Positions 1,742-21,873 of a stretch of DNA of 64,000 nt are shown in pieces (position 1 is the first letter of the stretch; the number at the start of each line of letters is the position of its first letter). This DNA is from Alphaproteobacteria bacterium (GTDB taxonomy: Bacteria; Pseudomonadota; Alphaproteobacteria; CAAHEQ01; UBA3637): NCBI GenBank assembly GCA_015062385.1, contig SUUT01000006.1, positions 7,587 through 71,586 of the forward strand, given 5' to 3'. Under the pieces are notes generated by a model. It was not told the DNA's origin. It ran no database searches and saw only the letters and a list, made by a program, of their open reading frames with translations. Both the position numbers and the translations under genes were made by a program.

Positions 1742-1756
1742 CTTGCAAGGAGCGGA

Positions 1757-3748: not shown

Positions 3749-3913
3749 TCTCCCTGATAGATTTATTCAAAATTCTATCAGGTAATTTTCTGAATTGCAA
3801 CAGAAAAAAACAGGTGTCGCAAAATTTCTTTGTCGGCACTTTTTATTTTAATTTTTAACGGGCGTTATTGTGTTTAAAGCATACAACGCTCTTTTTTTAC
3901 GGAGAAAATAAAG

Positions 3914-4639
3914 ATGAGTACGATTTTAGAAATTTGTCAGGATGTTGCTTCACTGGTTGCAACACAAAAACCGGATACATTGTTTGATACGGATAATCAA
4001 CAATCCGCCATTTTTTTAAGCATTGCCAAAGATACGTTGGAAAGTTTACGGCGTTATGGTGATTGGCAGGAGTTAACCAAAGAGGGCTCTTTAACCGTTA
4101 CGCCTAATAAGTCAATCTATCGATTACGGGATGTTTGTCCTGATTTTTATTCATTGATGAACAATACGGTATATGTGCGGGATACGTCCGAACGGATTAT
4201 CGGGTCCATTACGCCCGAACAATGGATGAATGACCGTTTTTTTAATGTAGGTGTATCGGAAATGCGGTTTAAAATTCAAAATAATTGTTTGCGATTTTTA
4301 ACACCGCCCACACAACGTTGTCGGATTGTGTTTTATTATCGGTCAAGCGTTATTGCGGTTTCATCCGAAACGGATTGTCCATGTGATGAAATTGAAAAAA
4401 CAACCTTAACGGCAGATACGGATATTCCTGTATTTGATGAATATCTGGTTAAGTTGGGTATTATCTGGCGGTGGTATAAACGTAACGGATTGCCATATGA
4501 AGAAGAATTTAACGAATATACAAAGGAAGTGAAAAATCGTTTTAGCAATGGGTTATGTTTAAAAGATATTCCGTTAGCCCGTTGTTTTGATACGTCTTTA
4601 AACGGATTGGGAGGTGTTCATGTTATTACGAAAGCCTAA
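3914..4639 (+). CDS. phage structural protein (head-tail adaptor/tail accessory candidate)
   Basis: The 241-aa ORF has an RBS (ggagaaaataaagatg) and overlaps the next gene by 20 nt. The call is by position only, upstream of a large beta-rich tail-like protein. Confidence 0.4.
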   Translation: MSTILEICQDVASLVATQKPDTLFDTDNQQSAIFLSIAKDTLESLRRYGDWQELTKEGSLTVTPNKSIYRLRDVCPDFYSLMNNTVYVRDTSERIIGSITPEQWMNDRFFNVGVSEMRFKIQNNCLRFLTPPTQRCRIVFYYRSSVIAVSSETDCPCDEIEKTTLTADTDIPVFDEYLVKLGIIWRWYKRNGLPYEEEFNEYTKEVKNRFSNGLCLKDIPLARCFDTSLNGLGGVHVITKA

Positions 4640-6182
4640 TCGAACAAACAAGTCGGTCAACTATGTGTTGCCGTGTCCCAGCGGGGGATTAAATGCCCGT
4701 GATAGTCGGGATAAAATGCAGTTAACCGATGCCATTGTTATGGATAATTATATGCCGTTAAATACACAGGTTTCTTTGCGAAAAGGATATCGTAAATATG
4801 TACCCTTGTCATGTGCAGTAAAAACATTAGTGACATATAATGCACCGGATGGAAAAGACCGTTTATTTGCTTTTGGTGGTGGTACGGTATGGGATATTAC
4901 CAGTGTTCTGGATGTGCGGGATTTGGAAAAAACATATACCGGTAATACATGGCAAACATGTCAGTTTAAAAATCGGTTGTTTGCCGTCAATGGTGTTGAT
5001 GTTCCGCAAACGTATGTGCCGGATGAAACGGGTGTTTCGGTCGGGTCTTGGGAAGATGTGTCTTTTTCGGGTGACAATTTAAATTTAACCAAGCTTGTGC
5101 AGGTTGGTGTTTCAAAACAACGCCTGTGGTTTGTTGAAAAAGGTAGTTTAACCGTTTGGTACACAAGTGGTGTTGCCGAAGTTCAGGGAACATTAATTCC
5201 GTTTGATTTTAGTACCGTTGCTACAAAAGGGGGGCATCTGGTTGCCGTTGGTTGTTGGACACAGGACGGTGGTCAGGGATTGGATGATTTAACTGTTTTT
5301 ATCACATCGGAAGGGGAAGTTCTTGTTTATAGTGGAACAAATCCAAGCAGTGCAGATGGTTGGATTTTACGGGGTGTGTATCAAATCAGCCGACCGCTTG
5401 GGTATGATTGTCTATTGCCATATCAAGGCGATTTGATTGTTTTGTGCGAAGCCGGATATTTACCGTTATCCAAAGCATTATCCTTGCAAAACGCTACCGA
5501 TACCCGTATTGCATTCAGCGATAAAATCAGGGAGCTGGTGCAAGATCGTATTCGGTCCAATCGGGCAAAGGACGGTTGGCAGGGGATTATATACAGTCGG
5601 GGCGGATATGCCTTGTTTAATGTGCCGGTTGCACAGCAATTTGAACAACATGTTGTGAATACTACAACTGGAGCATGGTGTCGGTTTACGGGTATTCGTT
5701 CTTATTGTTGGACGGTTTTTCAAACACGGCTTTATTTTGGAACAGATAATGGAGTTATGCTGTTTGATGAGGGGTATAGTGATGACGGGCAACCGATTGT
5801 CGGAGTTGTGGAACAGGCATTCAGTGATTTGGGTAGTCCGTACTTAAAAAAAGCACAGTTGATGAATCCCCGAACAAAATCATCATTGCCTTATGCTTTA
5901 ACGGTTTACTGGAATACGGATTATCAATCGGTTGAACGTAAAAATGCTTTATCGGTCGGTGATCAGAAAACGGTTTTGTGGAATCAGGTTAAATGGTCCT
6001 CATTAAAAGATAAAAGCGGGACACTTTGGGCAACGTTGAAAGGTCGTATTCGGTCGCAGTGGATTGGTTGCAATGCAACCGGTTTTAAATTGAGTTTGGT
6101 ATTTAAAACCAAAACAAAAGGAACCCTGATTGATTGGTATGAAACAGGTGTTCGCTATGAACAGGGAACCGGAATTTTATAG
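4620..6182 (+). CDS. phage tail hub/head-completion-like protein with beta-propeller-like repeats
   Basis: The start is taken at ATG 4620, behind gggagg. It has repeated beta-strand blocks (LFAFGGGTVWDIT, LFAVNGVDVP, LWFVEKGSLTVWYT, VFITSEGEVLVYSG, LYFGTDNGVMLF). Its size, position and C-terminal GFKL..L.F pattern recall P22 gp10-type proteins. Not verified. Confidence 0.4.
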   Translation: MLLRKPNRTNKSVNYVLPCPSGGLNARDSRDKMQLTDAIVMDNYMPLNTQVSLRKGYRKYVPLSCAVKTLVTYNAPDGKDRLFAFGGGTVWDITSVLDVRDLEKTYTGNTWQTCQFKNRLFAVNGVDVPQTYVPDETGVSVGSWEDVSFSGDNLNLTKLVQVGVSKQRLWFVEKGSLTVWYTSGVAEVQGTLIPFDFSTVATKGGHLVAVGCWTQDGGQGLDDLTVFITSEGEVLVYSGTNPSSADGWILRGVYQISRPLGYDCLLPYQGDLIVLCEAGYLPLSKALSLQNATDTRIAFSDKIRELVQDRIRSNRAKDGWQGIIYSRGGYALFNVPVAQQFEQHVVNTTTGAWCRFTGIRSYCWTVFQTRLYFGTDNGVMLFDEGYSDDGQPIVGVVEQAFSDLGSPYLKKAQLMNPRTKSSLPYALTVYWNTDYQSVERKNALSVGDQKTVLWNQVKWSSLKDKSGTLWATLKGRIRSQWIGCNATGFKLSLVFKTKTKGTLIDWYETGVRYEQGTGIL

Positions 6183-6197
6183 TTTTGCTATATGTTT
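6180..6197 (+). promoter_or_regulatory. conserved phage intergenic motif, copy 3 of 6
   Basis: tagttttgctatatgttt overlaps the stop of 4620..6182 and lies 54 nt upstream of ATG 6251. Confidence 0.5.
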
Positions 6198-6250
6198 GGA
6201 CCATTAAAAATATCAATATTTGTTTAATTTTAACAAGAAAGGAAATCAAA

Positions 6251-7354
6251 ATGACAGATTTATCAACTTACGATATCTTAAATGATATCAGAAACGGGAA
6301 GACCCCAGTCAAAAGACAAAATCCGCAACCGGGGGAAAGCCCATATTATTATATCCAGTCTAACGGAGATAAATCATATCTGCCAATAACGGAAAAGAAT
6401 ATTATTAATGTTAATTCGGCAGAGGAGCCGAATCCGCTATGGAGTAGTGCGTTTCAAAAGACAACAAATACGGGAAGTAATGAGGCAACACAAACAAGTG
6501 TTGCCGATTCGGTTTTATCGGGAACATTTGATACATTTCAAACGGATGGTTTGGGGACAAATTCCACGCAAACGGATAATTGGGGCTTCAATTCTGTTTC
6601 ATCAACAAATAACACAATGTCTTTGTTTGATACGCCTCAAACAATATCATCAATATTAGGTACAAGTTCAAGTGGTTCGGCAAATCCGTTTGGCACATCA
6701 TCATTTCAGCCGGATAATTCATCATTTTCTAACACAATCAATAATTATTTTACACCGAATATGTCGACTGAACAATCTTATCTTGATACCACTGCTCAAA
6801 CACAGAATACAATAGATATTAATACAAATTTAAAAACAAAGGAAAATTATTCAAACGCATATCCAATTATGCGTCCTGATAAAAGAAAATTAGTTCATTT
6901 TCCCCTTACTGAATATGTGAAGTATACAACAGGAAAGTTCGATTCCCCACATCCAAATAATCAAATTTTTGGAGCATTAAGAGATTTCGGAGAAAGTTAC
7001 ATTAATATGCAAAATGCAAATTTAAGAAGTAATCCGGAGACAAGAGAATCAGGAAAAACAATGGATAATTATGTACATTGTATAGCTAATTATAATGCTG
7101 CAAAACGAGGATCGTTAGGGGGGGGAACTGGATTGCTGTTAGGTGTATCTCGTGAGATGATGGATTTAATTAAAAATACAAAAAAAGGAGATATCTATTC
7201 GGCTTTAAAAGATGCTGTAAATGATCTTTCTGTTAATTCTGTTGGAATATTAAAAGGGATGACTAATTGGCATCAGTCAGCCGAAGAGGCTTGCCAAGAT
7301 TACAAACCGGAAAGTTATAATCCGATAGATGTTTATAAATGGTATCGTAAATAA
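6251..7354 (+). CDS. tail-associated protein: conserved N-module, S/T/N-rich linker, serum-amyloid-A-like C-terminal domain
   Basis: The start is taken at ATG 6251 (RBS aaggaaatcaaaatg). The C-terminus FGALRDFGESYINMQNAN...DNYVHCIANYNAAKRGSLGGG...VSRE parallels the vertebrate SAA motifs FDGARDMWRAYSDMREAN...DKYFHARGNYDAAKRGPGG...DARE. Confidence 0.6.
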   Translation: MTDLSTYDILNDIRNGKTPVKRQNPQPGESPYYYIQSNGDKSYLPITEKNIINVNSAEEPNPLWSSAFQKTTNTGSNEATQTSVADSVLSGTFDTFQTDGLGTNSTQTDNWGFNSVSSTNNTMSLFDTPQTISSILGTSSSGSANPFGTSSFQPDNSSFSNTINNYFTPNMSTEQSYLDTTAQTQNTIDINTNLKTKENYSNAYPIMRPDKRKLVHFPLTEYVKYTTGKFDSPHPNNQIFGALRDFGESYINMQNANLRSNPETRESGKTMDNYVHCIANYNAAKRGSLGGGTGLLLGVSREMMDLIKNTKKGDIYSALKDAVNDLSVNSVGILKGMTNWHQSAEEACQDYKPESYNPIDVYKWYRK

Positions 7355-7438
7355 TTTGTTTATGATGTAAAATTTTCTTGTTTATAGATGCATTTTGTTA
7401 TATGAATCTCGTGTAATAAGTGTATTAGGAGTGCCAAG

Positions 7439-8173
7439 ATGTTTTTATTTTGTGTTGTTTGTTTTCTTGTTTTTTTAGGATGGCAGTATCATGTTTATCA
7501 TTCTTTTTTAAGAATGACTAAATCGTGTTGCTTAATTAGTTACAAGGTTATCTTTGCACTTTTTACAATCGTATTATTTTTATTTTGTATCGGATGTTTG
7601 TTGTTATCTGTTCCGATTTGGATAATTTTTTTCGGTGGCTTATGTTTATATGTCTTGATGTTTTGCCTACTGGATATTGTATTATCACGGCAAGTGATAA
7701 AATACCGAAGTTTATGGTTTTTAAAGCCGATATGGATAAGTTTTTTTATCGTTAATTTATTATTTTTAATAATTGGTTTAGGGGAATATATTTCGGTTAT
7801 CGTATGGATTTGGGTACAATTAATGAGTGTTTTTTGGATTTGTTTATCTAAACAACTGTTTTCGTATTCTTTAAATTATACATCTATAAATGGTGTTTTT
7901 AGACGTTTATTTTTTTGTATTTCTTTGTTCTTTTCGGTAGGGATGGGGCTTATATGGATTTTGATATTTTTAAGTGTTTGCTTTTTGCCGATATTTAATT
8001 GGTTACCGGAGAATTCATCAGACACATGTTTGGATTTTGGATATTGTCAATCAGGTTTGGTAATTAAGTATTGCGATAATGATTGTTCGGATATAATAGT
8101 TAGCAAAGATTGGTGCCTATCTCAAAATTTTCATTGGGATGAAAATGGGCAGGCATGTATTTTACATCAATAA
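7439..8173 (+). CDS. polytopic membrane protein with Cys-rich C-terminal tail
   Basis: The 244-aa ORF has at least 6 hydrophobic helices. It ends in CLDFGYCQSGLVIKYCDNDCSDIIVSKDWCLSQNFHWDENGQAC. It lies directly downstream of the SAA-like gene. Confidence 0.55.
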   Translation: MFLFCVVCFLVFLGWQYHVYHSFLRMTKSCCLISYKVIFALFTIVLFLFCIGCLLLSVPIWIIFFGGLCLYVLMFCLLDIVLSRQVIKYRSLWFLKPIWISFFIVNLLFLIIGLGEYISVIVWIWVQLMSVFWICLSKQLFSYSLNYTSINGVFRRLFFCISLFFSVGMGLIWILIFLSVCFLPIFNWLPENSSDTCLDFGYCQSGLVIKYCDNDCSDIIVSKDWCLSQNFHWDENGQACILHQ

Positions 8174-8243
8174 TGTTAAAGATGAAGCTTGGTTATTGCT
8201 TTTTGTTTTGATTGTTGTTTTTCTTATTATATATCCCGCATTG

Positions 8244-8572
8244 CTCTGAATTTATTTCAAGGATTTGGTTACAATAATGGCAGAATGTTTGTGCCAATTC
8301 TACCCGAGATTCCGGACTAAATCCAGAATGACGGTAAGTGTAAATATTTGTTGTTATTTCAATCATTTTTAATGTTTTTCGTCACTCCGGACTTGGTCCG
8401 GAGTCTTGTCACAACAATGGCACACCATTCGTGCCACACCGTCCCGAGAATCTGAAACAAGTTCAGATGACGATGAGTGTAAAGGGGGGGCATCATTTTG
8501 TCCGAAATCTCGTCACGAAATGGCAGCGTGTTTGTGCCGGTTCTATACGAGACTCCGGATGACGATAGCGAT
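8244..8572. repeat. three tandem REP/MITE-like units
   Basis: The units lie at about 8244-8335, 8378-8472 and 8490-8572. Each contains GT(C/T)AC(G/A)A(T/C)AATGGCA-N8-GTGCC and hairpin ends (ccggacttggtccgg, ctgaaacaagttcag, ccggactaaatccag) next to GACG/CGTC. Confidence 0.8.
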
Positions 8573-8588
8573 GACAAACAATGATATA

Positions 8589-8606
8589 TAGTTTTACTAT
8601 GTGTTT
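8589..8606 (+). promoter_or_regulatory. conserved phage intergenic motif, copy 4 of 6
   Basis: tagttttactatgtgttt lies 63 nt upstream of ATG 8669, whose RBS context (aagaaaggaaataaaaatg) matches that of 6251. Confidence 0.5.
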
Positions 8607-8668
8607 GAGGATTTTCAATTCGTCGTTATGTATAAAATTGAGTTGTTTTTTTAAGAAAGGAAATAAAA

Positions 8669-9127
8669 ATGTCAATAAAAACAGATATATTATCTTCCAG
8701 TCAATCGGGAATGAGTGATGTGATATGGGATAAAGATTTATTAACCGTTCCTTGGGCTTGTGCCGGATTGGGGATAAAGCCTTCTGAAATTCGGATATTG
8801 ACGGCTTTAGCATTCTTTTGGCAGGGGCGTTTGGTCGGGTCGTTATTGTTTCATGATGGCTATGCCGGTCGGGATGTTTGGTGGACAATTTATACAGTAG
8901 ATAAACATTGGTGTCAACGGCGTTTTTTACGGACAATTTTTCGGGTTGCGTTTGAAGATTTTCATTTTCGCAGAATAGGAATTATTGTTCGGGCAGACAA
9001 TAAAAAATCATTGTCGTTGGTTCGTCGGCTTGGCTTTGTAGAGGAGGGACGATTTCGTCAAATTGAAGATGACGGAACGGATTGCCTTGTTTTTTCAATG
9101 CTCAAAAATGAAAATCAATTTGTATAA
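8669..9127 (+). CDS. GNAT-family N-acetyltransferase
   Basis: The C-terminal half (FHFRRIGIIVRADNKKSLSLVRRLGFVEEGRFRQ) fits the GNAT acetyl-CoA-binding beta4-alpha3 and beta5 pattern. Confidence 0.65.
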   Translation: MSIKTDILSSSQSGMSDVIWDKDLLTVPWACAGLGIKPSEIRILTALAFFWQGRLVGSLLFHDGYAGRDVWWTIYTVDKHWCQRRFLRTIFRVAFEDFHFRRIGIIVRADNKKSLSLVRRLGFVEEGRFRQIEDDGTDCLVFSMLKNENQFV

Positions 9128-9129
9128 TA

Positions 9130-9147
9130 TAGTTTTACTATAAGTTC
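9130..9147 (+). promoter_or_regulatory. conserved phage intergenic motif, copy 5 of 6
   Basis: atatagttttactataagttc, tandem with copy 6, which lies 25 nt downstream. Confidence 0.5.
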
Positions 9148-9154
9148 AGATATA

Positions 9155-9172
9155 TAGTTTTACTATAAGTTT
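9155..9172 (+). promoter_or_regulatory. conserved phage intergenic motif, copy 6 of 6
   Basis: atatatagttttactataagttt. Confidence 0.5.
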
Positions 9173-9357
9173 TGCTTTTGTTCGTTGTCCGAGACTTGTT
9201 TTATCGTTTTTGGGGGCGTAAAAAGTATTTTAAAGTAATAAAAAAATGTCAAAACAGATACGAATAATGTATCTGAATGATTTGTTCAATCAATTTTTAT
9301 TCAAATTTCAAGTGTGTCAAAAATAAATTTAAATTTTTTAAAAAAGGAGAAAAAAAT

Positions 9358-10056
9358 ATGAGTAAAGCAATTGGTTCGGTCTTAGGTACAAATGTTAAAG
9401 TTGATACCTCTGCCGGAGAGAATTATTTATCTTATTTAAAGTCTTATGATACGTCAACAGCCGATAAAACAAACAACTTAATGGCTCAGGAAGCGTATCA
9501 GTTGGCTTCTGATTTATCTAATCAAGGGCTGGTTTCTGCCGTTTCGGCTTCTGATGAAGCCCGTCAGCGGATGGAAAATGCAACATATCAATCATATATG
9601 GATCGCTTAATCCCGCAACATCAACAACAAATGGCTGATTTGGAAACCCGTTTGGCTAATCAGGGATTGTCGGTTGGTTCACAGGCTTATCAAACAGCCG
9701 TTAATAATTTAATGCAAGAACAAAATGATTCCATTAATCAAGCGACTTACAAGAGCGTTATTGCAGGTCAGGATGCTTATACGCAATCCCTAAATGATGC
9801 CATTGCAGCCGGTAATTTTACAAATACGGCTTATCAAACGGCAATTAATCAGATGAATGCACTCTTGCAAAATAGCCCAACGGGGTATCAAAATCAAGCA
9901 AATATCTATGCTGTTCAACAGGGTGTTGCACAACAACAGGCATCGGCAAAACAGCAAAGCTTAAACAATATGTTTGGCGTGTTGGGTGGGGCTTTAAATG
10001 CAGCGACAACCGCTTATGGTTATTCTCAAATGGGTAAAACTGCTTCAAACGGTTAA
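9358..10056 (+). CDS. Q/A/N-rich helical virion protein (ejection/scaffold-like)
   Basis: The start is taken at ATG 9358, behind aaggagaaaaaaat. The 232-aa product is low-complexity and coiled-coil-like. The call is by position only. Confidence 0.4.
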   Translation: MSKAIGSVLGTNVKVDTSAGENYLSYLKSYDTSTADKTNNLMAQEAYQLASDLSNQGLVSAVSASDEARQRMENATYQSYMDRLIPQHQQQMADLETRLANQGLSVGSQAYQTAVNNLMQEQNDSINQATYKSVIAGQDAYTQSLNDAIAAGNFTNTAYQTAINQMNALLQNSPTGYQNQANIYAVQQGVAQQQASAKQQSLNNMFGVLGGALNAATTAYGYSQMGKTASNG

Positions 10057-10203
10057 TCGGTGTTAACCTCAAATAATGCAGTATATCAGAGTGTTTTTTT
10101 TCTGTAATTTAAGTGTATCTGCATTTGATATTATTTATTTTTAATCAATAAATTAAATAGAATTATTAATGCTTAACATTAATTTAAAAAAAGGAAGGTT
10201 AAA

Positions 10204-11454
10204 ATGACAAATTTTAATTATGTTAATGATATTTTAAACGTTAATCGTCATGCTCCGAAAGCATTGGATTTAACGGGGATTGCCTCATTGCCGAATGCGG
10301 CGATAAATGGTTTACGAAATGGTATGGAGTTGAAAAATACAGTTTTGAAACAGCAGTCAACAGCAGATAGTTTATCTCGTCAACAGGCAGAAAACGATGT
10401 TCGGCGACAATATTTGCAAAATCCGGCTGCAAATACCATTTATGAGCCGTATTTTAACATCCGTCCATCTGGTCTTTCTCAAATGAATGGATATACAGTT
10501 AACGGCACAACTCAATCAGGTACCGATCGTTCTCGGATGATGCCGTCTAATGGATCTTCAATCAATAGTCGGGTAAATACATCCCGTACGCAAATGAGTG
10601 CAAAAGATAAAGAGTGGAATCGATTGACTGAGGCTGGTTTCGCTCCGCAAGAAATTATGTCTGTCTTATATCCGAAAGGTGTTCAAAGTAATGCTGTACA
10701 GCAAGAAAATCAAAAATCTTCAACAATGTTTGATAGATATGATTATTTTAACAAAAACAATCAAATAAATGACATTTCTAATCCAGTGAATGAAGATAAT
10801 TTTTCATCTTCAAACTTGATGAATGTTGGTCAAAATGTTTTTGTTTCTCCTCAACGTACACCGGTGGATTTTTCGGCTGTTGGAACAGATATGACAGTTC
10901 CTTCCGGCATGAATTTTGATACATCGGATGTGGCTAATCCGACAGATTTGAATACGTCATATCGACAAAATGCGTTTTCTTTTCCGCAATCGGATATCGT
11001 AAATGAAAAAACAATACCTATGCAATCGTTTATGTCCACATCTGAAACGGGGCCGATGAGTATGGATACAGTAAGTGATACATTAAATGCTTCCAATCCG
11101 GTAAGTAGTGAAATAAATACCTCAACGATGAGTGGAACAGTTGATAATGCATTTGTGTCAACAGGAACATCATCTGCTCCTACGGTTGAAAATATGCTAT
11201 CGACTTCCCCTGTCGGTTTAGGTGGAATGCATACAACAAATAATTATTCCTCCGAAACACAAAAATCAAGCGGACAAACATCATCGGTTGAAACTCAAAG
11301 CATGCATATGATGCCGTTTAAAACACAAGATGAATTGTATGCTTTTCAAGAAGCTGCTTTGGGAGCTGATTCTTCTTTAACCCCTGATCAACGCAATGCG
11401 CGTATTTTACAGGGCGTGCCAGTGTCTGATACATTTTGGAACAGCTTTGTTTAA
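10204..11454 (+). CDS. S/T/N-rich low-complexity virion protein (ejection/internal protein candidate)
   Basis: The 416-aa ORF has an RBS (aaggaaggttaaaatg) and extended S/T/N/M-rich segments. No family was recognised. Confidence 0.4.
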   Translation: MTNFNYVNDILNVNRHAPKALDLTGIASLPNAAINGLRNGMELKNTVLKQQSTADSLSRQQAENDVRRQYLQNPAANTIYEPYFNIRPSGLSQMNGYTVNGTTQSGTDRSRMMPSNGSSINSRVNTSRTQMSAKDKEWNRLTEAGFAPQEIMSVLYPKGVQSNAVQQENQKSSTMFDRYDYFNKNNQINDISNPVNEDNFSSSNLMNVGQNVFVSPQRTPVDFSAVGTDMTVPSGMNFDTSDVANPTDLNTSYRQNAFSFPQSDIVNEKTIPMQSFMSTSETGPMSMDTVSDTLNASNPVSSEINTSTMSGTVDNAFVSTGTSSAPTVENMLSTSPVGLGGMHTTNNYSSETQKSSGQTSSVETQSMHMMPFKTQDELYAFQEAALGADSSLTPDQRNARILQGVPVSDTFWNSFV

Positions 11455-11473
11455 CCGAATAAAAACCGTTAAC

Positions 11474-11503
11474 TTCCCCCGAAAAGATGTTTTTTCGGGG
11501 GAA
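11474..11503 (+). terminator. strong intergenic hairpin (ttcccccgaaaa-gatgtt-ttttcgggggaa)
   Basis: A 12-bp stem is read directly from the sequence. There is no clear T-run, so it may be a processing or attenuation hairpin rather than a true terminator. Confidence 0.4.
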
Positions 11504-11522
11504 AACGTTTAGGGAGCGGAAA

Positions 11523-11813
11523 ATGGACAGGAGAAGAAAAATGCCAAAATCTATGGATAGATTTTATGAAGTTCTGCATAAAACGGTGACCGGTTTTTTA
11601 ATTCCGCTTGTTTTTTATTTGTTGGGTCAAATCAATGAAGTGAAAAAAGAGGTATCAATTTTTGAGTTGCGGGTTGCCAAAGATTCAGCACAGTATGCCC
11701 TGCGAGATGATATCGTGCGGGTAGAAACAAAAATTGATGAGTTAAAAACACTTATCATACAGGAGGTTAAACGAAATGAGCATTATTACACCGGCTTTAA
11801 AAAAGCGGATTAA
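11523..11813 (+). CDS. holin or i-spanin-like membrane protein
   Basis: The start is taken at ATG 11523, behind gggagcggaaa. It has one TM helix (VTGFLIPLVFYLLGQI) followed by a coiled coil. It lies immediately upstream of, and overlapping, the endolysin gene. Confidence 0.5.
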   Translation: MDRRRKMPKSMDRFYEVLHKTVTGFLIPLVFYLLGQINEVKKEVSIFELRVAKDSAQYALRDDIVRVETKIDELKTLIIQEVKRNEHYYTGFKKAD

Positions 11814-12201
11814 ACGACATGAAGGGATGCGTCTTAAACCGTATCATTGTCCGGCTGGACGACTGACAATTGGCATTGGGCGTAATTTAACTGATGTTGG
11901 TATAACAGAAACGGAAGCTGAGTATTTGTTGGAAAACGATTTGCAATCGGCCGAAAAAAATTGTTCGGATGCGTTTATTTGGTATGAAAAACTGGATAAT
12001 ATTCGAAAAGGCGTGATTGTGGAAATGGTTTTTAATTTAGGATTTGCGGGATTTTTGGGATTCCGCAAATTGATAAAAGCGTTAACGATAGGGGATTATC
12101 TGACCGCTTCGAAAGAAATGTTATCCAGTCGTTGGGCAGCACAGGTGGGGCATCGGGCAGAGGTATTATCGTTAATTATGAAAACAGGAAAGGAGTATTA
12201 A
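11776..12201 (+). CDS. T4-type (GH24) phage lysozyme/endolysin
   Basis: HEGMRLKPYHCPAGRLTIGIGRNL aligns with T4 lysozyme [24 protein letters not shown], including the catalytic Glu and Thr. EMVFNLGFAGFLGF...SRWAAQVGHRAEVL aligns with NMVFQMGETGVAGF...SRWYNQTPNRAKRV. Confidence 0.9.
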   Translation: MSIITPALKKRIKRHEGMRLKPYHCPAGRLTIGIGRNLTDVGITETEAEYLLENDLQSAEKNCSDAFIWYEKLDNIRKGVIVEMVFNLGFAGFLGFRKLIKALTIGDYLTASKEMLSSRWAAQVGHRAEVLSLIMKTGKEY

Positions 12202-12202
12202 C

Positions 12203-12343
12203 ATGAAAGACAGACTATTATTATTTTTAAAAACAAACAAAAAGAAAATGATAACATTTATCGTAACGGGTATTTTAGCGGCGTTAGGTGTAGTAGCCGA
12301 TACAACGGCGTTAACTGAGTTATTGTCCGTTATGATACCATAA
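12203..12343 (+). CDS. 46-aa single-TM protein (holin/antiholin/spanin-like), below the ORF-track cutoff
   Basis: The ATG lies 2 nt after the lysozyme stop, with aggag 8 nt upstream. The product is MKDRLLLFLKTNKKKMITFIVTGILAALGVVADTTALTELLSVMIP, with a basic N-terminus and one TM helix. Confidence 0.5.
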   Translation: MKDRLLLFLKTNKKKMITFIVTGILAALGVVADTTALTELLSVMIP

Positions 12344-12354
12344 AAGGAGTGAAA

Positions 12355-13011
12355 ATGATGATTGTACAGCAAACGAAACCGGCGTTTTATCCGATAACGA
12401 CGGAGGATGTGTCGGCAACGGATATGCCGGAATGTCATCAATTAAATAATCGGATACATTCAGTTGAAAATAAGCTCAAAAAGCAAAATCATTCATCTGA
12501 AATTGTTTCGTCTGTTCAGCGAAAGCCTCAAAAAACTTCCGTTGAACGAAATTTGCAATCAGTTCAGGAAAAAAAGGTTTCTGTTTTTTCCGAACAGGAT
12601 GTATTGCCATCTCAGCGGAAAGCAGAAATGCTTTCCGCTGAACAAATTCAGTGTACAAAGCAAAAACAAACAGATGTTTGTTCTGTCACACAGGATGAAC
12701 CGACCCTTTTTTCATATACGATTGCAGACAGTTTTTCAAAATTATGTGATATTCAGGAAACTGCTTTATCCATGGCACCCAAACCCGATTTTACGGCAGC
12801 GTTAAAGTCGGAGGAATTAAAAGGAAAACTGTTTGGATTATATACGGATAAAAAGGATAAAGAAAAAGGATTTGAAAATTTACCGCAGTTGTTGGTTGAA
12901 TTTATTGAGGTTGATAAAACGGAATATCGAACATCATTCGGCAATGCAACAGCAGATAATAATCATTCGACAGAGGAAAATAGTTTGCCATTTACGGTAG
13001 AATATGTTTAA
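12355..13011 (+). CDS. hypothetical phage protein upstream of the large terminase (small-terminase position)
   Basis: The ATG lies behind aaggag. The 218-aa product has no recognisable motifs. Only its position suggests a small-terminase (TerS) role. Confidence 0.3.
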   Translation: MMIVQQTKPAFYPITTEDVSATDMPECHQLNNRIHSVENKLKKQNHSSEIVSSVQRKPQKTSVERNLQSVQEKKVSVFSEQDVLPSQRKAEMLSAEQIQCTKQKQTDVCSVTQDEPTLFSYTIADSFSKLCDIQETALSMAPKPDFTAALKSEELKGKLFGLYTDKKDKEKGFENLPQLLVEFIEVDKTEYRTSFGNATADNNHSTEENSLPFTVEYV

Positions 13012-13022
13012 GGAGTTTTTTT

Positions 13023-14348
13023 ATGCCAAAAATCAAGGTGTGCATACCGGCGGTTTTTCGTCCGTTGTTAAGTCAGAAAAAACGCATTAAATTTTATTAC
13101 GGCGGACGGGCAGGGGGAAAATCTTATGCTTTTGCCGATAGTTTACTGATTTTAGGGCGGATGAAAAAATTATTTATTGTCTGTTTAAGGGAGATTCAGG
13201 GATCCATTCGGGATTCTGTTCATAAATTGTTATCTGATCGTATTTCGTATTATCAGTTAAGTGATTATAAAGTGACTGATACAAAAATTGAAAATAAAGT
13301 GACCGGAACAGTTTTTGTATTTAAAGGTTTGCGAGATCAGGATCCGCAAAAAATAAAATCATTGGAGGGAGCAGATATTGCTTGGATTGAAGAAGCACAA
13401 ACCATTACCAAAAAATCATGGGATATATTAGAACCGACCATTCGTAAGCCGAATTCCGAAATTTGGATATCCATGAATCGAGAACAGGAAAATGATCCTT
13501 TATGGGTAGCGGTGGCAGTACAACCGGATGAAAATACGCTGGTTCAAAAGGTTAATTATACAGATAACCCCTTTTGTCCGCAGGAAATGAAAGATTTAGC
13601 CGATAAGTGTCGAGAGAAAAATCCGACGGATTATGCACACATTTGGTTAGGTGAACCCATTTTAAACGGAAATAATAAGCTGATAGATTTGCAGTCCGTT
13701 AAAAAGGCTCAATCGGGTCATCTGATTGAAACATCCGGTTCGTTGATTATCGGATTGGACATTGCCCGTTTTGGGGATGATGAAACTGTTTTTTGTTTCA
13801 GGCGGGGGCGTATATGTGAACGGTTTGAAGCCTATCGGAAAAAAGATACGGTAGAAGTGGCAAATATTGTCACGCATTACATTCAGCAATATCAACCATA
13901 TCGCATTTTTTTGGATATTGGCGGACAGGGTGCCGGTGTGTATGATATTTTAACGGACAGAGGATTTCGGGAAGTTGTTCGGGGTATATCGTTTGGGGAA
14001 AAAGCCATTCAATCAGACAGATACGTGAATAAACGGGCAGAAATGTGGGACGGTATTCGTCAATGGTTGACGGGAACGAGTCCTGTTTATTTGCCGAATG
14101 ATACAGCTATTACGGATGATTTATGTGATGTGAATAAAAAATACGATCGGTTGGGACGATTACAGTTGGAAGAAAAAGAAAGTTTAAAACGCCGGTTAGG
14201 ACGTTCTCCGGATTGGGGAGATGCATTAGCGTTAACGTTTGCAGAGCCGATATTTGAACAAGATACGCCGAATTTATATACGAATGATACGGATAAAATC
14301 AGCATTGAAACCTTGTTTTGCGATAAAAGGGAAGGTGCTGGTTGGTAA
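13023..14348 (+). CDS. terL: phage terminase large subunit
   Basis: It has a Walker A-like YYGGRAGGKSYAFA and an ATPase-coupling LREIQGS / IAWIEEAQ (Walker B-like). The C-terminal nuclease-like half has GLDIARFGDDETVF and FLDIGGQGAGVYD. Confidence 0.8.
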   Translation: MPKIKVCIPAVFRPLLSQKKRIKFYYGGRAGGKSYAFADSLLILGRMKKLFIVCLREIQGSIRDSVHKLLSDRISYYQLSDYKVTDTKIENKVTGTVFVFKGLRDQDPQKIKSLEGADIAWIEEAQTITKKSWDILEPTIRKPNSEIWISMNREQENDPLWVAVAVQPDENTLVQKVNYTDNPFCPQEMKDLADKCREKNPTDYAHIWLGEPILNGNNKLIDLQSVKKAQSGHLIETSGSLIIGLDIARFGDDETVFCFRRGRICERFEAYRKKDTVEVANIVTHYIQQYQPYRIFLDIGGQGAGVYDILTDRGFREVVRGISFGEKAIQSDRYVNKRAEMWDGIRQWLTGTSPVYLPNDTAITDDLCDVNKKYDRLGRLQLEEKESLKRRLGRSPDWGDALALTFAEPIFEQDTPNLYTNDTDKISIETLFCDKREGAGW

Positions 14349-14463
14349 TGGGAAAAGTAGGCTGAAAAAGCAGATAAAAGGGATGTGTTTCAGCAATAAT
14401 AAGGGTAGAACGATTTTTTATTAATGAAACACATCTAAAAGGGCAGAAAAAAATCTGCCCTTT
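14316..14463 (+). repeat. 148-bp perfect direct repeat, left copy (terL 3' end plus terminator)
   Basis: Base-for-base identical by eye to 16028-16175. It contains an 11-bp inverted repeat (gatgtgtttca ... tgaaacacatc) and the gggcaga/tctgccc terminator. Confidence 0.9.
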
Positions 14464-14464
14464 T
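14441..14464. terminator. bidirectional rho-independent terminator
   Basis: gggcaga-aaaaaa-tctgccc is flanked by A4 and T4. Confidence 0.75.
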
Positions 14465-14486
14465 CCCAACTTTGAGCCATATGATA

Positions 14487-14551
14487 TTACTGCACCAAAA
14501 TAGCTTGTGCGGTTGCAGATGATACAGTCGGTGTCGCATAAAAAATAAGGC
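14487..14551 (-). pseudogene. relic 3' end of a pilin-like Cys-rich paralog
   Basis: The reverse strand reads ...FYATPTVSSATAQAILVQ*, against ...FYASIDVFSSTAQAILIQ* at the end of 16212..18341. An in-frame stop lies just upstream, so only about 20 codons survive. Confidence 0.6.
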
Positions 14552-14692
14552 TATACATTTAATCGGGTTATTATTTGATGTTATCGAAAATGGTTTTAGG
14601 GACAAAAATGGATAGTTTAAGTTTAAAAATTGGGTAAAAGTTAAACTTAAATAGCATAATATTAAAATAAGTTTAATTGTTCAAACTTAAAT

Positions 14693-15817
14693 TTATAAAC
14701 CGGCTTCAATTATATCCATATACTTTTTGAATATGTATTTTTTATATCTTTTTGTTTGATTGGTTTGGACTAATAATCCTTTTTCCACAAATCCATTTAC
14801 TAATTTATTTGCGGTTGCTTTACTAACTTGTAATGATTTCTCAACTGCTGAAATCTCTAATGTTGGTTTGACGAATAAAAAGTCAAAAAGTTTATACTCA
14901 TTTTCTCCTTTTAAAGTATGGGATAGTTCATTTTTTAACGAATTAATTTGAGTAGTTGTTTGCATAATTTGTTTGCAAACTATTTCTATTCCTTTTAAAA
15001 AGAACAAAATCCAAGTCTCAAAATCATTATTTTCTCTTGTTTTTGTTAAGAGAGTATAGTATTCTTGTTTATGTTTTTTTAAGTATAAACTCAAATATAA
15101 TGTCGGTTGTTCCAAGATGTTTTTGCTTATTAAAAATAAACTGATTAATAAACGTCCAATTCTTCCGTTTCCATCTAAAAATGGATGAATGGTTTCAAAT
15201 TGATAGTGTATTAATGCTAATTTAATAACATCGGGAAGTGTTCCTTCATAGATATATTTTTCTAAATCACTCATTAAATTAATTACGGTATCTTCTTTGG
15301 GTGGAACATAAATTGCGGTAGAGGGATTATTTCCGCCAATGAAATTTTGACTTCTTCTGAATTCGCCGGGGGTTTTGTCGTTTTCTCCACCTCTCACATT
15401 ATTCATTAAAATATTGTGACATTCTCTTAATAGCCTTGATGATAAAGGTAATCCACCATTTTTGATTTGATTGGTGGCATAATTTAAAGCATGCAAGTAG
15501 TTTTTCACTTCTATAATATCTACTTTTATATCATCATTATTATTGTTTTCATTTTGTAAAATTTCCACCATGGTGGATTGTGTCCCTTCTATCTGTGATG
15601 ATAATAATGCTTCTTTTAATGCATATTTTTCAATTAAAAGTTCCGGATTAGGTAATAAAATATTTAATGCATTTAATTGTCCTAATGCCCAAGTTGCACT
15701 GGAGATTGCTTGATATAGATTTGACAAATCCAATTCTTTTTCTATTTGTTGTAATGCATTTGGTTGAAAAGTGTCATATCCTCTGCCAGAATTTACTTTA
15801 CTTCCGGAAATTGGCAT
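14693..15817 (-). CDS. Fic-family protein (class II, N-terminal inhibitory helix, C-terminal wHTH-like domain)
   Basis: It has the Fic motif HPFLDGNGRIGR and the inhibitory motif S-x-x-x-E-G in LLSSQIEGTQS upstream. The C-terminal ~70 aa are winged-helix-like. Confidence 0.9.
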   Translation of the reverse strand: MPISGSKVNSGRGYDTFQPNALQQIEKELDLSNLYQAISSATWALGQLNALNILLPNPELLIEKYALKEALLSSQIEGTQSTMVEILQNENNNNDDIKVDIIEVKNYLHALNYATNQIKNGGLPLSSRLLRECHNILMNNVRGGENDKTPGEFRRSQNFIGGNNPSTAIYVPPKEDTVINLMSDLEKYIYEGTLPDVIKLALIHYQFETIHPFLDGNGRIGRLLISLFLISKNILEQPTLYLSLYLKKHKQEYYTLLTKTRENNDFETWILFFLKGIEIVCKQIMQTTTQINSLKNELSHTLKGENEYKLFDFLFVKPTLEISAVEKSLQVSKATANKLVNGFVEKGLLVQTNQTKRYKKYIFKKYMDIIEAGL

Positions 15818-16027
15818 TTTTATCTCCTTTTTTTAATGTTAATTATTATAATTTATTTCAAAGTATAATGAATTTAAGTTAAAAAAACAAGATAAAATTA
15901 AACTTATTGGCAAAAATATAAGAATAAGTACAGAAAACTAAACTTATATTTTTGCTAATAAAAAAATTTTTTGTAAAGCAGAAACAACTTGTGCGTAAAT
16001 GATTTGATGTTTGCCGGAAAAAAGATA

Positions 16028-16175
16028 TTTTGCGATAAAAGGGAAGGTGCTGGTTGGTAATGGGAAAAGTAGGCTGAAAAAGCAGATAAAAGGGATGTGT
16101 TTCAGCAATAATAAGGGTAGAACGATTTTTTATTAATGAAACACATCTAAAAGGGCAGAAAAAAATCTGCCCTTT
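16028..16175 (+). repeat. 148-bp perfect direct repeat, right copy (detached terL 3' fragment plus terminator)
   Basis: Identical to 14316-14463. Here it is not attached to any terminase ORF. Confidence 0.9.
16153..16175. terminator. bidirectional terminator (copy), serves the gene ending at 16212
   Basis: The same gggcaga/tctgccc hairpin. On the minus strand it is followed by tttt. Confidence 0.7.
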
Positions 16176-16211
16176 AATTGTTCCCCTCTTTTTTATTGAA
16201 AAAAAAACAGT

Positions 16212-18341
16212 CTATTGTATCAAAATCGCTTGTGCGGTTGATGAGAATACATCTATTGATGCATAAAACGTATTGGCAGGTGCTAGATCTTTATTGGTAT
16301 TTACCTGTGCCAATACAACAAGTTGATTACCTTTTGGTTTTTGTAATGCCATTAATAAATGTTGCCCATGATTATCATAGCATCCGGTATCTTGATCATA
16401 ATGAACCGGTACAAAATTTGAAATAGTTGTATTTGTTAAGATTATCTGATTGTTTGTTACAGTTAAACGACCGCTCCATCTTGGACAGCTTCCTAATTGA
16501 ACACTTGTAGAAATATCTGCTTTTTGATTTGTTCCGATTAATTGCCATACACCGGTTGTAATTGTTGTCGGAAAAGTAAATATTAACGAATTTCCTTTGG
16601 TTAATGAATATGTTCCAACATGATTAGCAATATCTTCATAATATCCGCCTGTTTCAATCGAAACGGTTACGGCACACGCTTTATGTTCATCATTCCAAGT
16701 TGCCCCCTCCGGACACGTAATACACGTTCTGCCATTATCATGTGAACCGGTCGGACAAGTACATCCTGTTTGTGTGGCATTTATGATATACGGTGCTGTA
16801 CACGTTGCACAGGTTGTCCCTGTATCATATGTTCCTGTCGGACAGACACATTTATCGCCTTCACGAGTATAGGGGGCAAAGCACATCGGGCCCCAATCCC
16901 GACATAATGCGTAGTGCGGTCCACCATGATAATCCGTAGAAGAGCTTTGATGTGTATTAACTTTGTTTTGAGATAACCAGAAACAGGCTCGTTGACAAGT
17001 CATATTGCCACTCTGACTCCAAGGATTATAGGTAATCCACGGACCACTTGAATATCCGGCATTTATTAAATTGGTTGTAATTATCTTATATACTGAACTA
17101 TCATATCCGCTACATGTTTGGGCCTGATTGTCAATTGCTAGATTGTTTGTACATCCTAAATCAGGAACGGATACCATTTGTTTCCCCAAAGCTGTACAGA
17201 AGTTAATGGCTGATTCCCAACCTTTATTGCCGTCTCCATAATCTTTTTTAGAGAAATAAAAGTTGACACCGTTAATTTTGAAAGTGATGAAATCCAATTT
17301 TTCACAACGAGCATTGCTAAATGTTCCCGTTTCACAAATATTATCCCCCCGTGTACAGAAATAATTTGTATCATTATTGTACAGTTTATGACAATCATCA
17401 TTCGATTCGCATTCATTCGGCGAACATTCTTTACCATTCCAATACGGCGCAGAACTTGGACAGGCAATACATTCGTTTGTATTAACGGCAAAAACCGGTG
17501 TTGCATCCGGACATTTTTCACATTTGTCTGGATTTGTACTGTTCACATTATAAAATGGGCGTTCATCCGGACACGATTTGCAGGTATTATTTGATGTATC
17601 ACAGACAAGGTTCGGAATTTGACACGTACTGTCATCGATGCATTCAACACATTCTTCATTATGCCATACAGGTGTCATATCCGGACAACGACACGTTGTT
17701 TCATCTTCAAACCATTCTTTGGGCGGATAACACCGTTCGCAATTATCTCCAAATTCATATTCGTGACGACAAACACAACCATATGTACCATCTTCTTTTT
17801 GTCGCCATACCATTTTATCGGGGCAGGATTGCGGTTCAATATTTGGATTATCCGTTTCTGTTTCAGTGGTTCCGCCGAAATGACTGTCTGAATTAACAAC
17901 CGGAATTGCATTAAAAGAAAACACCATATTTGTTTTGCTGTTTGGATTTCCGCACGTTCTTGTTAAAATTGAAATACCCATATCATTCAATATACCTTCC
18001 TTTTGAAGGAGTTTTTCACAAACCTTATAAACCACTTTAAATGTCGTTACCTGATAATTACTATTAACCAACTTGACCATGGACTTTTTGTCATCAGGGA
18101 CATATTCGGAAAGTGCTGATTTAATAAACCGATTGACTTCCAATGCATGAGAAGCCCGAGAATCTGTTTGTGCCAATGTTTTGGCTTTTCCGAGAACATC
18201 CTGCACTTTGCCGGCTTGATAAGCCGTTAACGCATATTGGTAAGTAGCAACACCGGCAACAGATAATACACCGATAATTGCCAATACCCCTAGCATTTCC
18301 ACCATACTTCGTCCGGTTTCATTCAGTTTGATTTTAAACAT
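16212..18341 (-). CDS. type IV pilin-like N-terminus fused to Cys-rich ectodomain with lectin-like insert
   Basis: MFKIKLNETG|RSMVEMLGVLAIIGVLSVAG has a Gly, Glu at +5 and a hydrophobic helix. The RBS is gggaggag. It has dense C-x-x-C / C-x-C repeats, a W-x-S-A-x-x-F-C-x-x-x-G module, and a Cys-poor beta-rich C-terminal ~140 aa. Confidence 0.8.
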   Translation of the reverse strand: MFKIKLNETGRSMVEMLGVLAIIGVLSVAGVATYQYALTAYQAGKVQDVLGKAKTLAQTDSRASHALEVNRFIKSALSEYVPDDKKSMVKLVNSNYQVTTFKVVYKVCEKLLQKEGILNDMGISILTRTCGNPNSKTNMVFSFNAIPVVNSDSHFGGTTETETDNPNIEPQSCPDKMVWRQKEDGTYGCVCRHEYEFGDNCERCYPPKEWFEDETTCRCPDMTPVWHNEECVECIDDSTCQIPNLVCDTSNNTCKSCPDERPFYNVNSTNPDKCEKCPDATPVFAVNTNECIACPSSAPYWNGKECSPNECESNDDCHKLYNNDTNYFCTRGDNICETGTFSNARCEKLDFITFKINGVNFYFSKKDYGDGNKGWESAINFCTALGKQMVSVPDLGCTNNLAIDNQAQTCSGYDSSVYKIITTNLINAGYSSGPWITYNPWSQSGNMTCQRACFWLSQNKVNTHQSSSTDYHGGPHYALCRDWGPMCFAPYTREGDKCVCPTGTYDTGTTCATCTAPYIINATQTGCTCPTGSHDNGRTCITCPEGATWNDEHKACAVTVSIETGGYYEDIANHVGTYSLTKGNSLIFTFPTTITTGVWQLIGTNQKADISTSVQLGSCPRWSGRLTVTNNQIILTNTTISNFVPVHYDQDTGCYDNHGQHLLMALQKPKGNQLVVLAQVNTNKDLAPANTFYASIDVFSSTAQAILIQ

Positions 18342-18380
18342 TTGGCTCCTCCCTACAAAAAAACTACTACTTTATATTAT

Positions 18381-18536
18381 AAAAAAAGGTACCTTTTTTT
18401 CCCGCTTCGAATCGAAAGAATCGGATTTTTAAGAAAATGAAAAATTATTGTTTTTATTGAATTGGTTAGTTAAAATCAAAAAAAATGTCAAAATGTGAAA
18501 AAAATTGTTGCATTTATACGTACCTTTTTGTACAGA
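18381..18536 (-). promoter_or_regulatory. conserved upstream element, copy A
   Basis: This is the reverse complement of 27526-27678. It ends in the perfect palindrome aaaaaaaggtaccttttttt (18381-18400). It also contains an A8/T8 tract and the tctgtacaaaaaggtacgta box. Confidence 0.75.
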
Positions 18537-18743
18537 CATATATTTTTTATTATGGCATTCTTTTGAACCTGCCGTCTGTCCTGTTGAACTTGTTTCAACA
18601 TTGCGGATAGAATTGGAATGGATATTTTTTTACCATTATCGTAATGAACCGCTGAAACAAATTCAAGGTTGTTGCTTAAAAGTGTGATAAATAAATGACG
18701 AAAAACTAAAAAGAGGGAAGAATCAGCACAAATAATATGCTAT
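18381..18743. repeat. left arm of a ~360-bp inverted repeat (upstream element plus REP units 18571-18743)
   Basis: The reverse complement aligns with 27322-27678 with only scattered mismatches and small indels, by eye. Confidence 0.85.
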
Positions 18744-18961
18744 TTTACATAAAAACCCTAAAATAATGCAAGAATAAGGGGCAAAAGTGTAAAAATACAC
18801 AAAAAAATTAATCACTGTAATGCTAAAAAATATAAAGAATAAATCTGATTTAGAATAGAAACAAAAAAAATACAAAAAAATTTAATATATTTTTTATTTA
18901 AAGAAAAAAAATTATTTTTTTTTGAAAAAAATGCTTTATGTACTTGCATAATTAAAAATTT

Positions 18962-21590: not shown

Positions 21591-21679
21591 AACGCCCCCA
21601 TTCTGATATTATAAATAATCTGTACATTATGAATGTCAATCCAACCAAAAGCATCATCAACAATCAAAAATTTTGTATT

Positions 21680-21843
21680 TCTGTAAAAAAAGGGACGTAT
21701 AATTGCAACACTTTTTTTCACTTTTTAGCATTTTTTTTGATTTTAACTAACTTATTAAACTAAAAGAATAATCTTTCATTTTTGCCGAAAGTTGATTTTC
21801 CCGATTCGAATAGGGAAAAAAAGGTCCCTTTTTGTATACACAA
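21680..21843 (+). promoter_or_regulatory. conserved upstream element, copy D (most diverged)
   Basis: tctgtaaaaaaagggacgtataattgcaacactttttttcac...T8...gattttaactaa...gattcgaatagggaaaaaaaggtcccttttt is collinear with copies A-C. The palindrome is degraded to ggtccc. Confidence 0.65.
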
Positions 21844-21873
21844 TTAGTGTACAACCAAACACATGGAGGAAAT

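Follow-up and report, generated by a model that had tools for sequence, protein, structure and literature searches.

Introduction

Insertion-duplication mutagenesis with a suicide plasmid is a Campbell-type, single-crossover integration, and recombination between the duplicated segments can reverse it. Here we describe a locus of this layout in a 64,000-nt stretch of DNA (hereafter the window) from an Alphaproteobacteria bacterium (assembly GCA_015062385.1, contig SUUT01000006.1, positions 7,587 to 71,586), where a gene for a Fic protein of the SoFic type lies between two perfect direct repeats, which we call R, at the 3' end of the phage terminase gene terL. As in the plasmid case, homology is followed by an insert and again by homology, the homology is single-copy in the empty allele, and recombination between the duplicates would undo the arrangement; unlike the plasmid case, the event is a natural one, the identity extends over 148 nt only, and the circle is postulated.

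Several described systems come close to this locus. SoFic has been reported as a standalone anti-phage system (10.1101/2022.05.11.491447), and it is described as a dimeric AMPylase with a toxicity in which the C-terminal domain plays a part; in Escherichia coli, a 47-aa antitoxin is encoded downstream (PMC12249575). Prophage defence hotspots and morons, such as those of P2 and P4 (PMC9122126, PMC13586616), share with our locus a single AT-rich accessory defence gene at a fixed site beside phage genes, present in some strains and not in others. Unlike the hotspots, this site has one cargo alone in the sampled strains, and its insert lies between two long, perfectly matching copies of the junction; unlike hotspots and morons alike, it lies at the phage-host junction and not between phage genes. 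The text of a 2026 survey (PMC13586616) does not mention direct repeats or terminators and leaves open the mechanism by which defence genes are exchanged. Cis-mobilizable elements (CIMEs) and tandem accretion (PMC5704250) provide a further parallel, namely a short cargo without integration genes, direct repeats that include a gene 3' end, and a position beside a larger element. Unlike CIMEs, our locus has a 148-nt perfect repeat, and the sequence behind its left repeat is of host type rather than element type. The locus belongs to known kinds, as a member of the SoFic family and as a repeat-flanked insertion without a recombinase, and is not a new kind.

Results

A perfect duplication of the terL junction flanks the Fic gene

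A repeat search and a string comparison placed the two copies of R at 14316-14463 and 16028-16175 and found them 100% identical over their 148 nt, offset by 1,712 nt and enclosing 1,564 nt of DNA, just as an earlier note on this DNA had claimed of two identical repeats around some 1.56 kb with a Fic gene. Neither a third copy nor a partial copy longer than 13 nt was found within the 64-kb window. The left copy of R opens with the last 33 nt of terL (13023-14348, plus strand) and includes a hairpin and a second, terminator-like one; the first 33 nt of the right copy are a detached terL 3' fragment. The arms of the first hairpin (14382-14402 and 14415-14435, 21 nt) are 86% complementary and contain an 11-bp perfect core; the second is a G+C hairpin, AAAAGGGCAGA-N6-TCTGCCCTTTT, at 14437-14464. 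Folded as RNA, R reaches -45.6 kcal/mol (z = -5.9 against shuffles). The earlier note had described R as the last 33 nt of terL, an 11-bp inverted repeat, and a bidirectional terminator. The first two components are present as described and the third is a fair reading of the hairpins, but a simple terminator rule is passed by the left copy alone, on the minus strand.

Behind the left R, alignment of junctions delimits a 23-nt spacer (14464-14486; TCCCAACTTTGAG), followed by a 57-nt relic of a pilin-like gene (14487-14543, minus strand). A 71-nt segment (14544-14614) separates the relic from the 1,333-bp SoFic unit (14615-15947, minus strand), and an 80-nt segment (15948-16027) runs from the unit to an abrupt join with the right R at 16027/16028. 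Behind the right R, a 36-nt spacer beginning AATTGTTCCCCTC (16176-16211) leads to the intact pilin-like gene (16212-18341, minus strand; 709 aa), which is convergent with terL. Both R copies and the flanking gene ends confirm that the junction is duplicated, with Fic in between. The 71-nt segment matched nothing in the window or in the fetched loci apart from copies of the filled allele itself; the 80-nt segment showed no homology to terL upstream of 14316 and no match elsewhere in the window or the fetched loci. The GC content of the insert is 27.7%, 10-12 points below its flanks (terL, 39.8%; pilin-like gene, 38.6%).

Related strains carry an empty site

To find empty sites, we looked up four further variants of the terL protein that share its 90% cluster (P0121, P0243, P0245, and P0253). 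In 16 conspecific contigs from different samples (L050-L058 and L114-L120), terL, about 97% identical in DNA to that of the window, precedes a single R, directly behind which come the AATTGTTCCCCTC spacer and the convergent pilin-like gene. This single R is 98-100% identical to the window R, reaching 100% in L054, L119, and L120. Over the spacer and the pilin-like 3' region, identity to the window amounts to 94.5-96.6% in seven contigs (L051, L053, and L114-L118) and to 87-88.6% in the other nine. A more distant metagenome-assembled genome (MAG), L009, with a terL of 95% DNA identity and a diverged intergenic region, also has the site without Fic; it keeps the terminator hairpin, a similar spacer, and the pilin-like gene, and it has a single, diverged R and no relic. 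The spacer behind the right R, found in 16 of 16 empty-site contigs and in similar form in L009, is therefore the ancestral continuation of R. The spacer behind the left R is unlike all 17 empty-site spacers, a short TCCC..CTTT similarity being possible at most.

The relatives, 16 of them with near-identical terL, are thus empty at this site rather than uniformly filled with diverged repeats, and the filled allele was seen only with the window's own terL protein haplotype. Samples with the filled haplotype are JGI 3300024303, 3300018475, and 3300018493, ENA ERZ27248306, and SRR7032240, SRR7032241, and SRR10963010. By parsimony over the empty alleles versus the one filled haplotype, the empty state is ancestral and the 1,712 nt, an extra R together with 1,564 nt of AT-rich DNA of foreign origin, are a recent insertion in one lineage. 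The locus is also mosaic, since the terL 3' end and R of the window match L119 and L120, and its pilin-like allele matches L114-L118 and L053. A metagenome scan with the terminator pattern AAGGGCAGAAAAAA(N0-1)TCTGCCCTTT returned ten unrelated loci and no conspecific contigs, and neither the centre of R nor the relic spacer turned up when viral contigs were scanned for exact matches. The insert had no close counterpart in phage and plasmid databases, which gave short matches to the Fic domain only.

The tandem arrangement itself recurs in L002, a separate 7,134-nt JGI contig that crosses both R copies and is 100% identical to the window. Other assemblies (L001, L003, L005, and L006) stop precisely at the repeat. 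The terL-bearing contigs L001 and L003 end inside R, and the Fic segment forms a contig of its own in L005 (MEGAHIT k141), with 141 nt of R per end, and in L006, with 123 nt. A 148-nt repeat should cause just such breaks in a de Bruijn graph. Because an independent assembly crosses both repeats and 17 relatives have the empty site, the insertion is real and strain-variable. The locus is an ordinary, cleanly documented gain/loss polymorphism of a defence gene; the polymorphism is observed directly, and its mechanism is what we infer below.

The relic behind the left repeat is another allele of the pilin-like gene

The pilin-like gene is one of a multigene family that shares a conserved 5' region, and its 3' part is polymorphic, the alleles being 87-96% identical among strains. 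The relic corresponds to the last 18 codons and the stop of another allele of this gene, upstream of which the reading frame is broken. Positions 14488-14543 are 73% identical to 16213-16268, and the relic encodes FYATPTVSSATAQAILVQ followed by a stop, where the intact gene ends in FYASIDVFSSTAQAILIQ. The earlier note had read the relic as a decayed remnant of the end of the adjacent gene, but it is a different allele: its peptide resembles the alleles of L054 (FYATANVSSSTAQAILIQ) and L009 (FYATATVSLSTAQAILMQ) no less closely than the resident one, and its spacer matches 0 of 17 empty alleles. An origin from another pilin-like paralogue in the window was rejected, as the C-termini differ.

A second filled strain, L007 (Logan SRR10963010), is 99.5% identical to the window over 1,561 nt. 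Five of its eight differences cluster at 14502-14520, all of them toward the intact sequence of the L054/L119 type, and as a result a 30-nt stretch (window equivalent 14497-14526) is identical to that intact allele. The k=31 unitig of L007 ends exactly at the start of this shared 30-mer. A break is expected there if that genome contains the 30-mer twice, and it implies that the duplicated junction is longer in L007. The patch shows recombination or gene conversion, either between the two junction copies or between strains. Together with the single terL haplotype of the filled allele, it supports the earlier suggestion of a recent event or ongoing conversion.

The insert encodes a distant SoFic-type Fic protein

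Inside the insert, the Fic gene (14693-15817, minus strand; 374 aa) is the sole credible open reading frame (ORF), and no recombinase gene is present, as the earlier note had observed. Its product has a predicted AMP-transferase fold, with an inhibitory motif near the N-terminus and a winged-helix region at the C-terminus. It matches Pfam Fic_N (residues 36-115) and Fic (E 3.7e-20), with a weak C-terminal MarR-like match. The catalytic motif HxFx(D/E)GNGRxxR is present as HPFLDGNGRIGR at residues 211-222, and the inhibitory motif (S/T)xxxE(G/N) of class II Fic proteins as SSQIEG at residues 73-78, within the Fic_N match (by the motif alone). The PADLOC SoFic model matches residues 14-371 (E 1.2e-113), and the SoFic structures 3eqx/3zcn in the PDB match with E 5e-37.

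The protein accordingly shares the Fic_N-Fic-winged-helix layout of SoFic (Millman et al. 2022), of the Shewanella oneidensis protein (PDB 3EQX/3ZCN), and of E. coli Sofic (Wu et al. 2025), and it resembles SoFic in having both catalytic and inhibitory motifs, a strong PADLOC match, and a standalone gene. Unlike known SoFic proteins, it lies far below the NCBIfam equivalog cut-off, which points to a distant clade, and unlike E. coli Sofic, it has no AS1-like antitoxin gene, there being no conserved small ORF downstream of Fic, where 78 nt are conserved. These comparisons identify the gene as a distant member of the SoFic defence family, and its product most probably aborts phage infection as a toxic AMP-transferase kept in check by auto-inhibition. 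Two points tell against this assignment: the score against the NCBIfam SoFic equivalog NF046030 is 186 bits, compared to a cut-off of 550, and the anti-phage role of this particular protein is a predicted one.

Paired palindromic modules bracket the gene in five contexts

Related gut Alphaproteobacteria have Fic homologues that are 68-84% identical. We looked up four of them (71-84% identity; L032, L034, L059, and L063) and found them in unrelated chromosomal contexts. In L032, the unit stands between convergent gene ends, flanked by hypothetical genes and a dUTPase gene; in L034, it follows a PilS/bundlin-type pilin gene near pnp; and in L059, NUDIX and M20-peptidase genes are its neighbours on the two sides. 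At the DNA level, homology to the window extends over 14615-15947 in L032 (78%) and over 14614-15906 in L063 (70.5%). The downstream end of homology is alike in both, and the upstream end at 15947 is set by L032. The 1,333-bp unit so defined has a GC content of 26.9% and consists of module, Fic gene, and module.

In the window, the downstream module (14618-14689, minus strand; 72 nt) contains the palindromes TAAGTTTG-N6-TAAACTTA and TAAGTTTA-N16-TAAACTTA, and the upstream module (15875-15946, minus strand; 72 nt) contains the same two and overlaps the likely promoter region. Pattern searches found four such sites in 64 kb, all beside Fic. A complete module consists of TAAGTTTA-N6-TAAACTTA plus TAAGTTTA-N16-TAAACTTA, and modules bracket the gene in five of five contexts, at 72 nt each, or 83 nt in L063. 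Upstream, the N6 site lies at about -102 to -119 and the N16 site at about -42 to -58 from the start codon, the N16 site alone being recognisable in L034 and L059. Downstream, the N6 site begins 4-16 nt and the N16 site 44-58 nt after the stop. The two modules are in direct orientation. Within a locus they are 96% identical in L032, 84% in L063, and 71% in the window; identity between loci is 51-79% overall, and 75-79% between the window and L032. Their coordinates in the other loci are 7878-7949 and 9120-9191 (L032); 3861-3943 and 5126-5208 (L063); 5989-6020, 7189-7260, and 7279-7350 (L034); and 3988-4019 and 5198-5269 (L059). The modules were rejected as a general SoFic feature: 31 more distant SoFic-like viral loci in IMG/VR have no flanking similarity, unlike the window Fic gene with its paired modules on both sides. 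The simplest reading of the modules is that they are operators for the protein's own DNA-binding domain, and they are the most novel element of the locus.

In the window, the unit has additional DNA on both sides, 151 nt with the relic on one and 80 nt on the other, and therefore did not arrive bare. Outer repeats are found in two of the other contexts as well. In L034, a 69-nt terminator-bearing direct repeat (4946-5014 and 7534-7602, 91% identical) flanks the pilin gene and Fic, and in L063 a 79-nt sequence (2373-2451) recurs as two pieces (5477-5514 and 6822-6861) on either side of the neighbouring gene. These repeats may reflect similar recombination histories, or chance.

The locus lies between a phage-like cluster and chromosomal genes

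The terL gene encodes a PBSX-type terminase large subunit (Pfam Terminase_3, E 1e-34; PHROG terminase; NCBIfam TIGR01547, above cut-off), with relatives in MAGs of uncultured Alphaproteobacteria from ruminant guts; the source of the window is itself an uncultured alphaproteobacterium of the ruminant gut. It is the last gene of a phage-like cluster (1-14348) that also comprises the C-terminal part of a portal protein, an SU10-type adaptor, an amidase, a virion protein, and a lysozyme. The portal gene (1-757) runs off the start of the window, and the left end of the prophage is outside it. Since related phage contigs (L020, L022, L027, and L028 were compared) run in the order terL, GroES-like gene, portal, the phage genome is opened here between terL and portal, giving a permuted element with terL last. 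No integrase or other recombinase family was found among those ORFs of the visible cluster that were scanned, a set that did not take in every ORF. An exact-protein look-up of ORF 29-757 found no record.

Relatives in other species show several differing gene orders, and the terL region of a 17-kb human-gut phage record is 68% identical. Over the first 500 nt of terL (13023-13522), the filled haplotype has 21 private substitutions relative to L050, L051, L055, L114, and L119, which are nearly identical to each other there; these differences look like a recombination patch unrelated to the cassette. Elsewhere in the cluster are three tandem paralogous genes of 154 aa (1811-3177; 90-93% identical in DNA) and a duplicated 450-nt segment (1074-1526 and 6179-6632, 5.1 kb apart; 89-96% identity).

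The 709-aa pilin-like protein has a prepilin-type leader, G-RSMVE, with a sub-threshold N_methyl match (E 0.04), and an exact-protein look-up found no record of it. Its 5' upstream region and leader (G-RSMVEMLGVLA...) are repeated four times in the window, at 18374-18744 (inverted) versus 27321-27691, at 21663-21845, and at 48584-48766, and are up to 99% identical over 197 nt. One member of this prepilin-leader family matches Teneurin-type EGF domains. Another, of 1,215 aa (27697-31344), has tandem coding repeats of about 150 nt (especially at 29250-31311), a cysteine pattern of the CxxCPAGxYC type, and no Pfam match. To the right of about 21 kb, the scanned ORFs correspond to ordinary chromosomal genes, among them a rhodanese-domain gene, a CDP-alcohol phosphatidyltransferase gene, uvrC, mreB, mreC, and genes for a penicillin-binding transpeptidase, a rodA/ftsW-family protein, an RF3-type GTPase, CTP synthase, and DNA polymerase I.

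Discussion

The best explanation of the locus is a recombinase-independent, single-crossover (Campbell-type) homologous integration of DNA that carried a copy of the junction, a reading to which we give about an even chance. It is suggested by the R-insert-R topology, by the single R of the empty allele, by the lack of a recombinase, and by the homology of the insert's left end to the sequence that normally follows R. The relic is the insert's own, diverged copy of the post-R sequence, which one would predict for DNA arriving from a homologous locus, and the empty allele is what a clean deletion between the R copies should leave or what a Campbell-type insertion would use as its substrate. The earlier note had spoken of a Campbell-type footprint; the topology, with its duplicated junction and the single R of empty strains, agrees with that description, and the mechanism follows from the topology by inference.

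The history that we propose would begin in a related lineage, where the 1,333-bp SoFic unit came to lie beside the 3' end of the pilin-like gene next to terL, leaving the 18-codon relic. A segment reaching from 33 nt inside terL, via R and the relic, to 80 nt past the unit would then have been circularised or otherwise presented to an empty locus, and one homologous, RecA-type crossover within R would have produced R-insert-R with no dedicated recombinase. Thereafter, the two junction copies would keep exchanging sequence, so that R stays identical and the relic is patched, as the patch in one strain illustrates. Recombination between the R copies is predicted to delete the cassette precisely and to restore the empty allele of the other strains. 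Once a filled allele exists, general recombination alone could account for its spread and loss.

Several observations weigh against Campbell-type integration. The join at 16027/16028 falls inside terL coding sequence and has no visible microhomology, and at least one illegitimate event is therefore required there; how the first circle arose has to be explained ad hoc. A donor carrying the relic's allele in intact form ("allele B") was not found, a search with the C-terminal 299 aa giving two hits, neither of them informative, and the relic spacer matches none of the 17 known alleles. The identity of the R copies is weak evidence of recency, three of the 16 empty alleles having the very same R. 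Both repeats are crossed by the window and L002 only, and a de Bruijn graph by itself cannot distinguish the tandem form from an empty site plus a free circle.

Site-specific tandem accretion is an unlikely alternative source of the same arrangement. On this account, R holds the right attachment (att) site of the prophage, and the Fic segment is an integrase-less, CIME-like element served by an integrase in trans. The position of R suits it well, exactly where the phage genome was opened (terL last, portal at the window start), and so do the gene 3' end within the repeat, which att repeats of islands often include, and the two hairpins within R; moreover, attL/attR-flanked elements without an integrase are a described class (PMC5704250). 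Yet neither the insert nor the scanned part of the phage cluster supplies an integrase, there is no third R in the window, which begins inside the portal gene, and the 148-nt block of identity is much longer than a typical crossover core. The left R, furthermore, precedes a host-side pilin relic, where an attP x attR event would have put the phage-side arm. Still less probable is a role for the palindromic modules in recombination. We consider it a long shot that the 1,333-bp unit is a previously undescribed, recombinase-less defence cassette whose modules serve a factor in trans as recombination sites for excision as a circle and re-insertion next to gene 3' ends, with long local duplications such as R and the 69-nt repeat of L034 as its signature. 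Even more remote is the variant in which the 72-nt modules act as sites for a recombinase in trans, comparable to integron attC sites or plasmid Xer modules, and the duplication of R is a by-product of insertion near hairpins. That the unit common to five contexts ends at the outermost half-sites would fit such a system, as would the direct orientation of the modules, whose likeness within a locus (96% in L032, 84% in L063) can exceed that between loci (51-79%), and the placement of the unit in intergenic DNA by gene 3' ends in several contexts, with convergent ends in L032. However, the insert is no clean unit here, given its additional 151 nt and 80 nt, the boundaries of the duplication are far from the modules, L032 and L059 have no outer duplication, and no recombinase came to light as a candidate; operators bound by the protein's own winged-helix domain would be just as likely to appear as palindromes between -40 and -120 from the start. 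An integron gene cassette proper was rejected on account of the modules on both sides of the gene, the scattered chromosomal contexts, and the lack of an integrase among the scanned window ORFs. An insertion sequence or transposon was rejected as well, Fic being the sole ORF, the insert ends having no terminal inverted repeats, and the duplication being 148 nt long.

Homology-facilitated illegitimate recombination is known from naturally transformable bacteria, and it would be the central step of a two-step history, which we judge to have a small chance. Here, a SoFic unit disrupts the pilin-like gene 57 nt from its stop, after which an imported intact allele, with one illegitimate end in the terL fragment, restores the gene and duplicates R. 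The import would be anchored by the conserved pilin 5' region, and its other end would arise by homology-facilitated illegitimate recombination 33 nt inside the terL fragment. The abrupt stop of the relic after 18 codons and the left edge of the right R, an arbitrary point in terL coding sequence with no homology upstream, are what this scheme would leave behind; the locus is visibly mosaic between strains, and the highly conserved 5' region of the pilin-like family could indeed anchor recombination. Against it, the 71 nt and 80 nt beside the unit are not recognisable pilin-like coding sequence, and the first step was therefore no simple insertion; the relic spacer is unlike all known alleles, although terL and R to its left are species-typical; and the mechanism is one of naturally transformable bacteria. 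A simple tandem duplication with decay in place was rejected, because identity is 100% across R yet falls to 73%, or to no alignment at all, in the spacer and relic beside it, and because other natural alleles are similar to the relic. Finally, we think it very doubtful that the polarity is the reverse, with a filled ancestor and empty alleles produced by deletions between the R copies, or that an empty locus and a 1.7-kb molecule were mis-resolved in assembly. A deletion between the repeats is scarless, so that one allele by itself gives no polarity, and short-read graphs with k <148 look alike for both forms, most assemblies breaking at R. But two assemblies cross both repeats, in the more distant L009 the one R is diverged and a relic is lacking, empty alleles occur in four other terL variants and the filled one in a single variant, the GC content of the insert is 10-12 points below its flanks, and a 1.7-kb circle with Fic alone has no replication function.

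Campbell-type integration through R, if it is the true history, means that a defence gene is gained and lost here as a unit. With its filled allele and exact empty alleles from many samples, the locus illustrates, in a clean natural case, one toxic defence gene that is kept as a gain/loss polymorphism. Perfect 148-bp repeats predict frequent, scar-less loss, and a costly abortive-infection gene could thereby be shed and regained without any mobility gene. The paired modules suggest autoregulation via the little-studied C-terminal DNA-binding domain of this SoFic clade, or else a cassette boundary. Repeat-mediated homologous integration of circularised fragments would be one concrete route by which defence genes move between hotspots.

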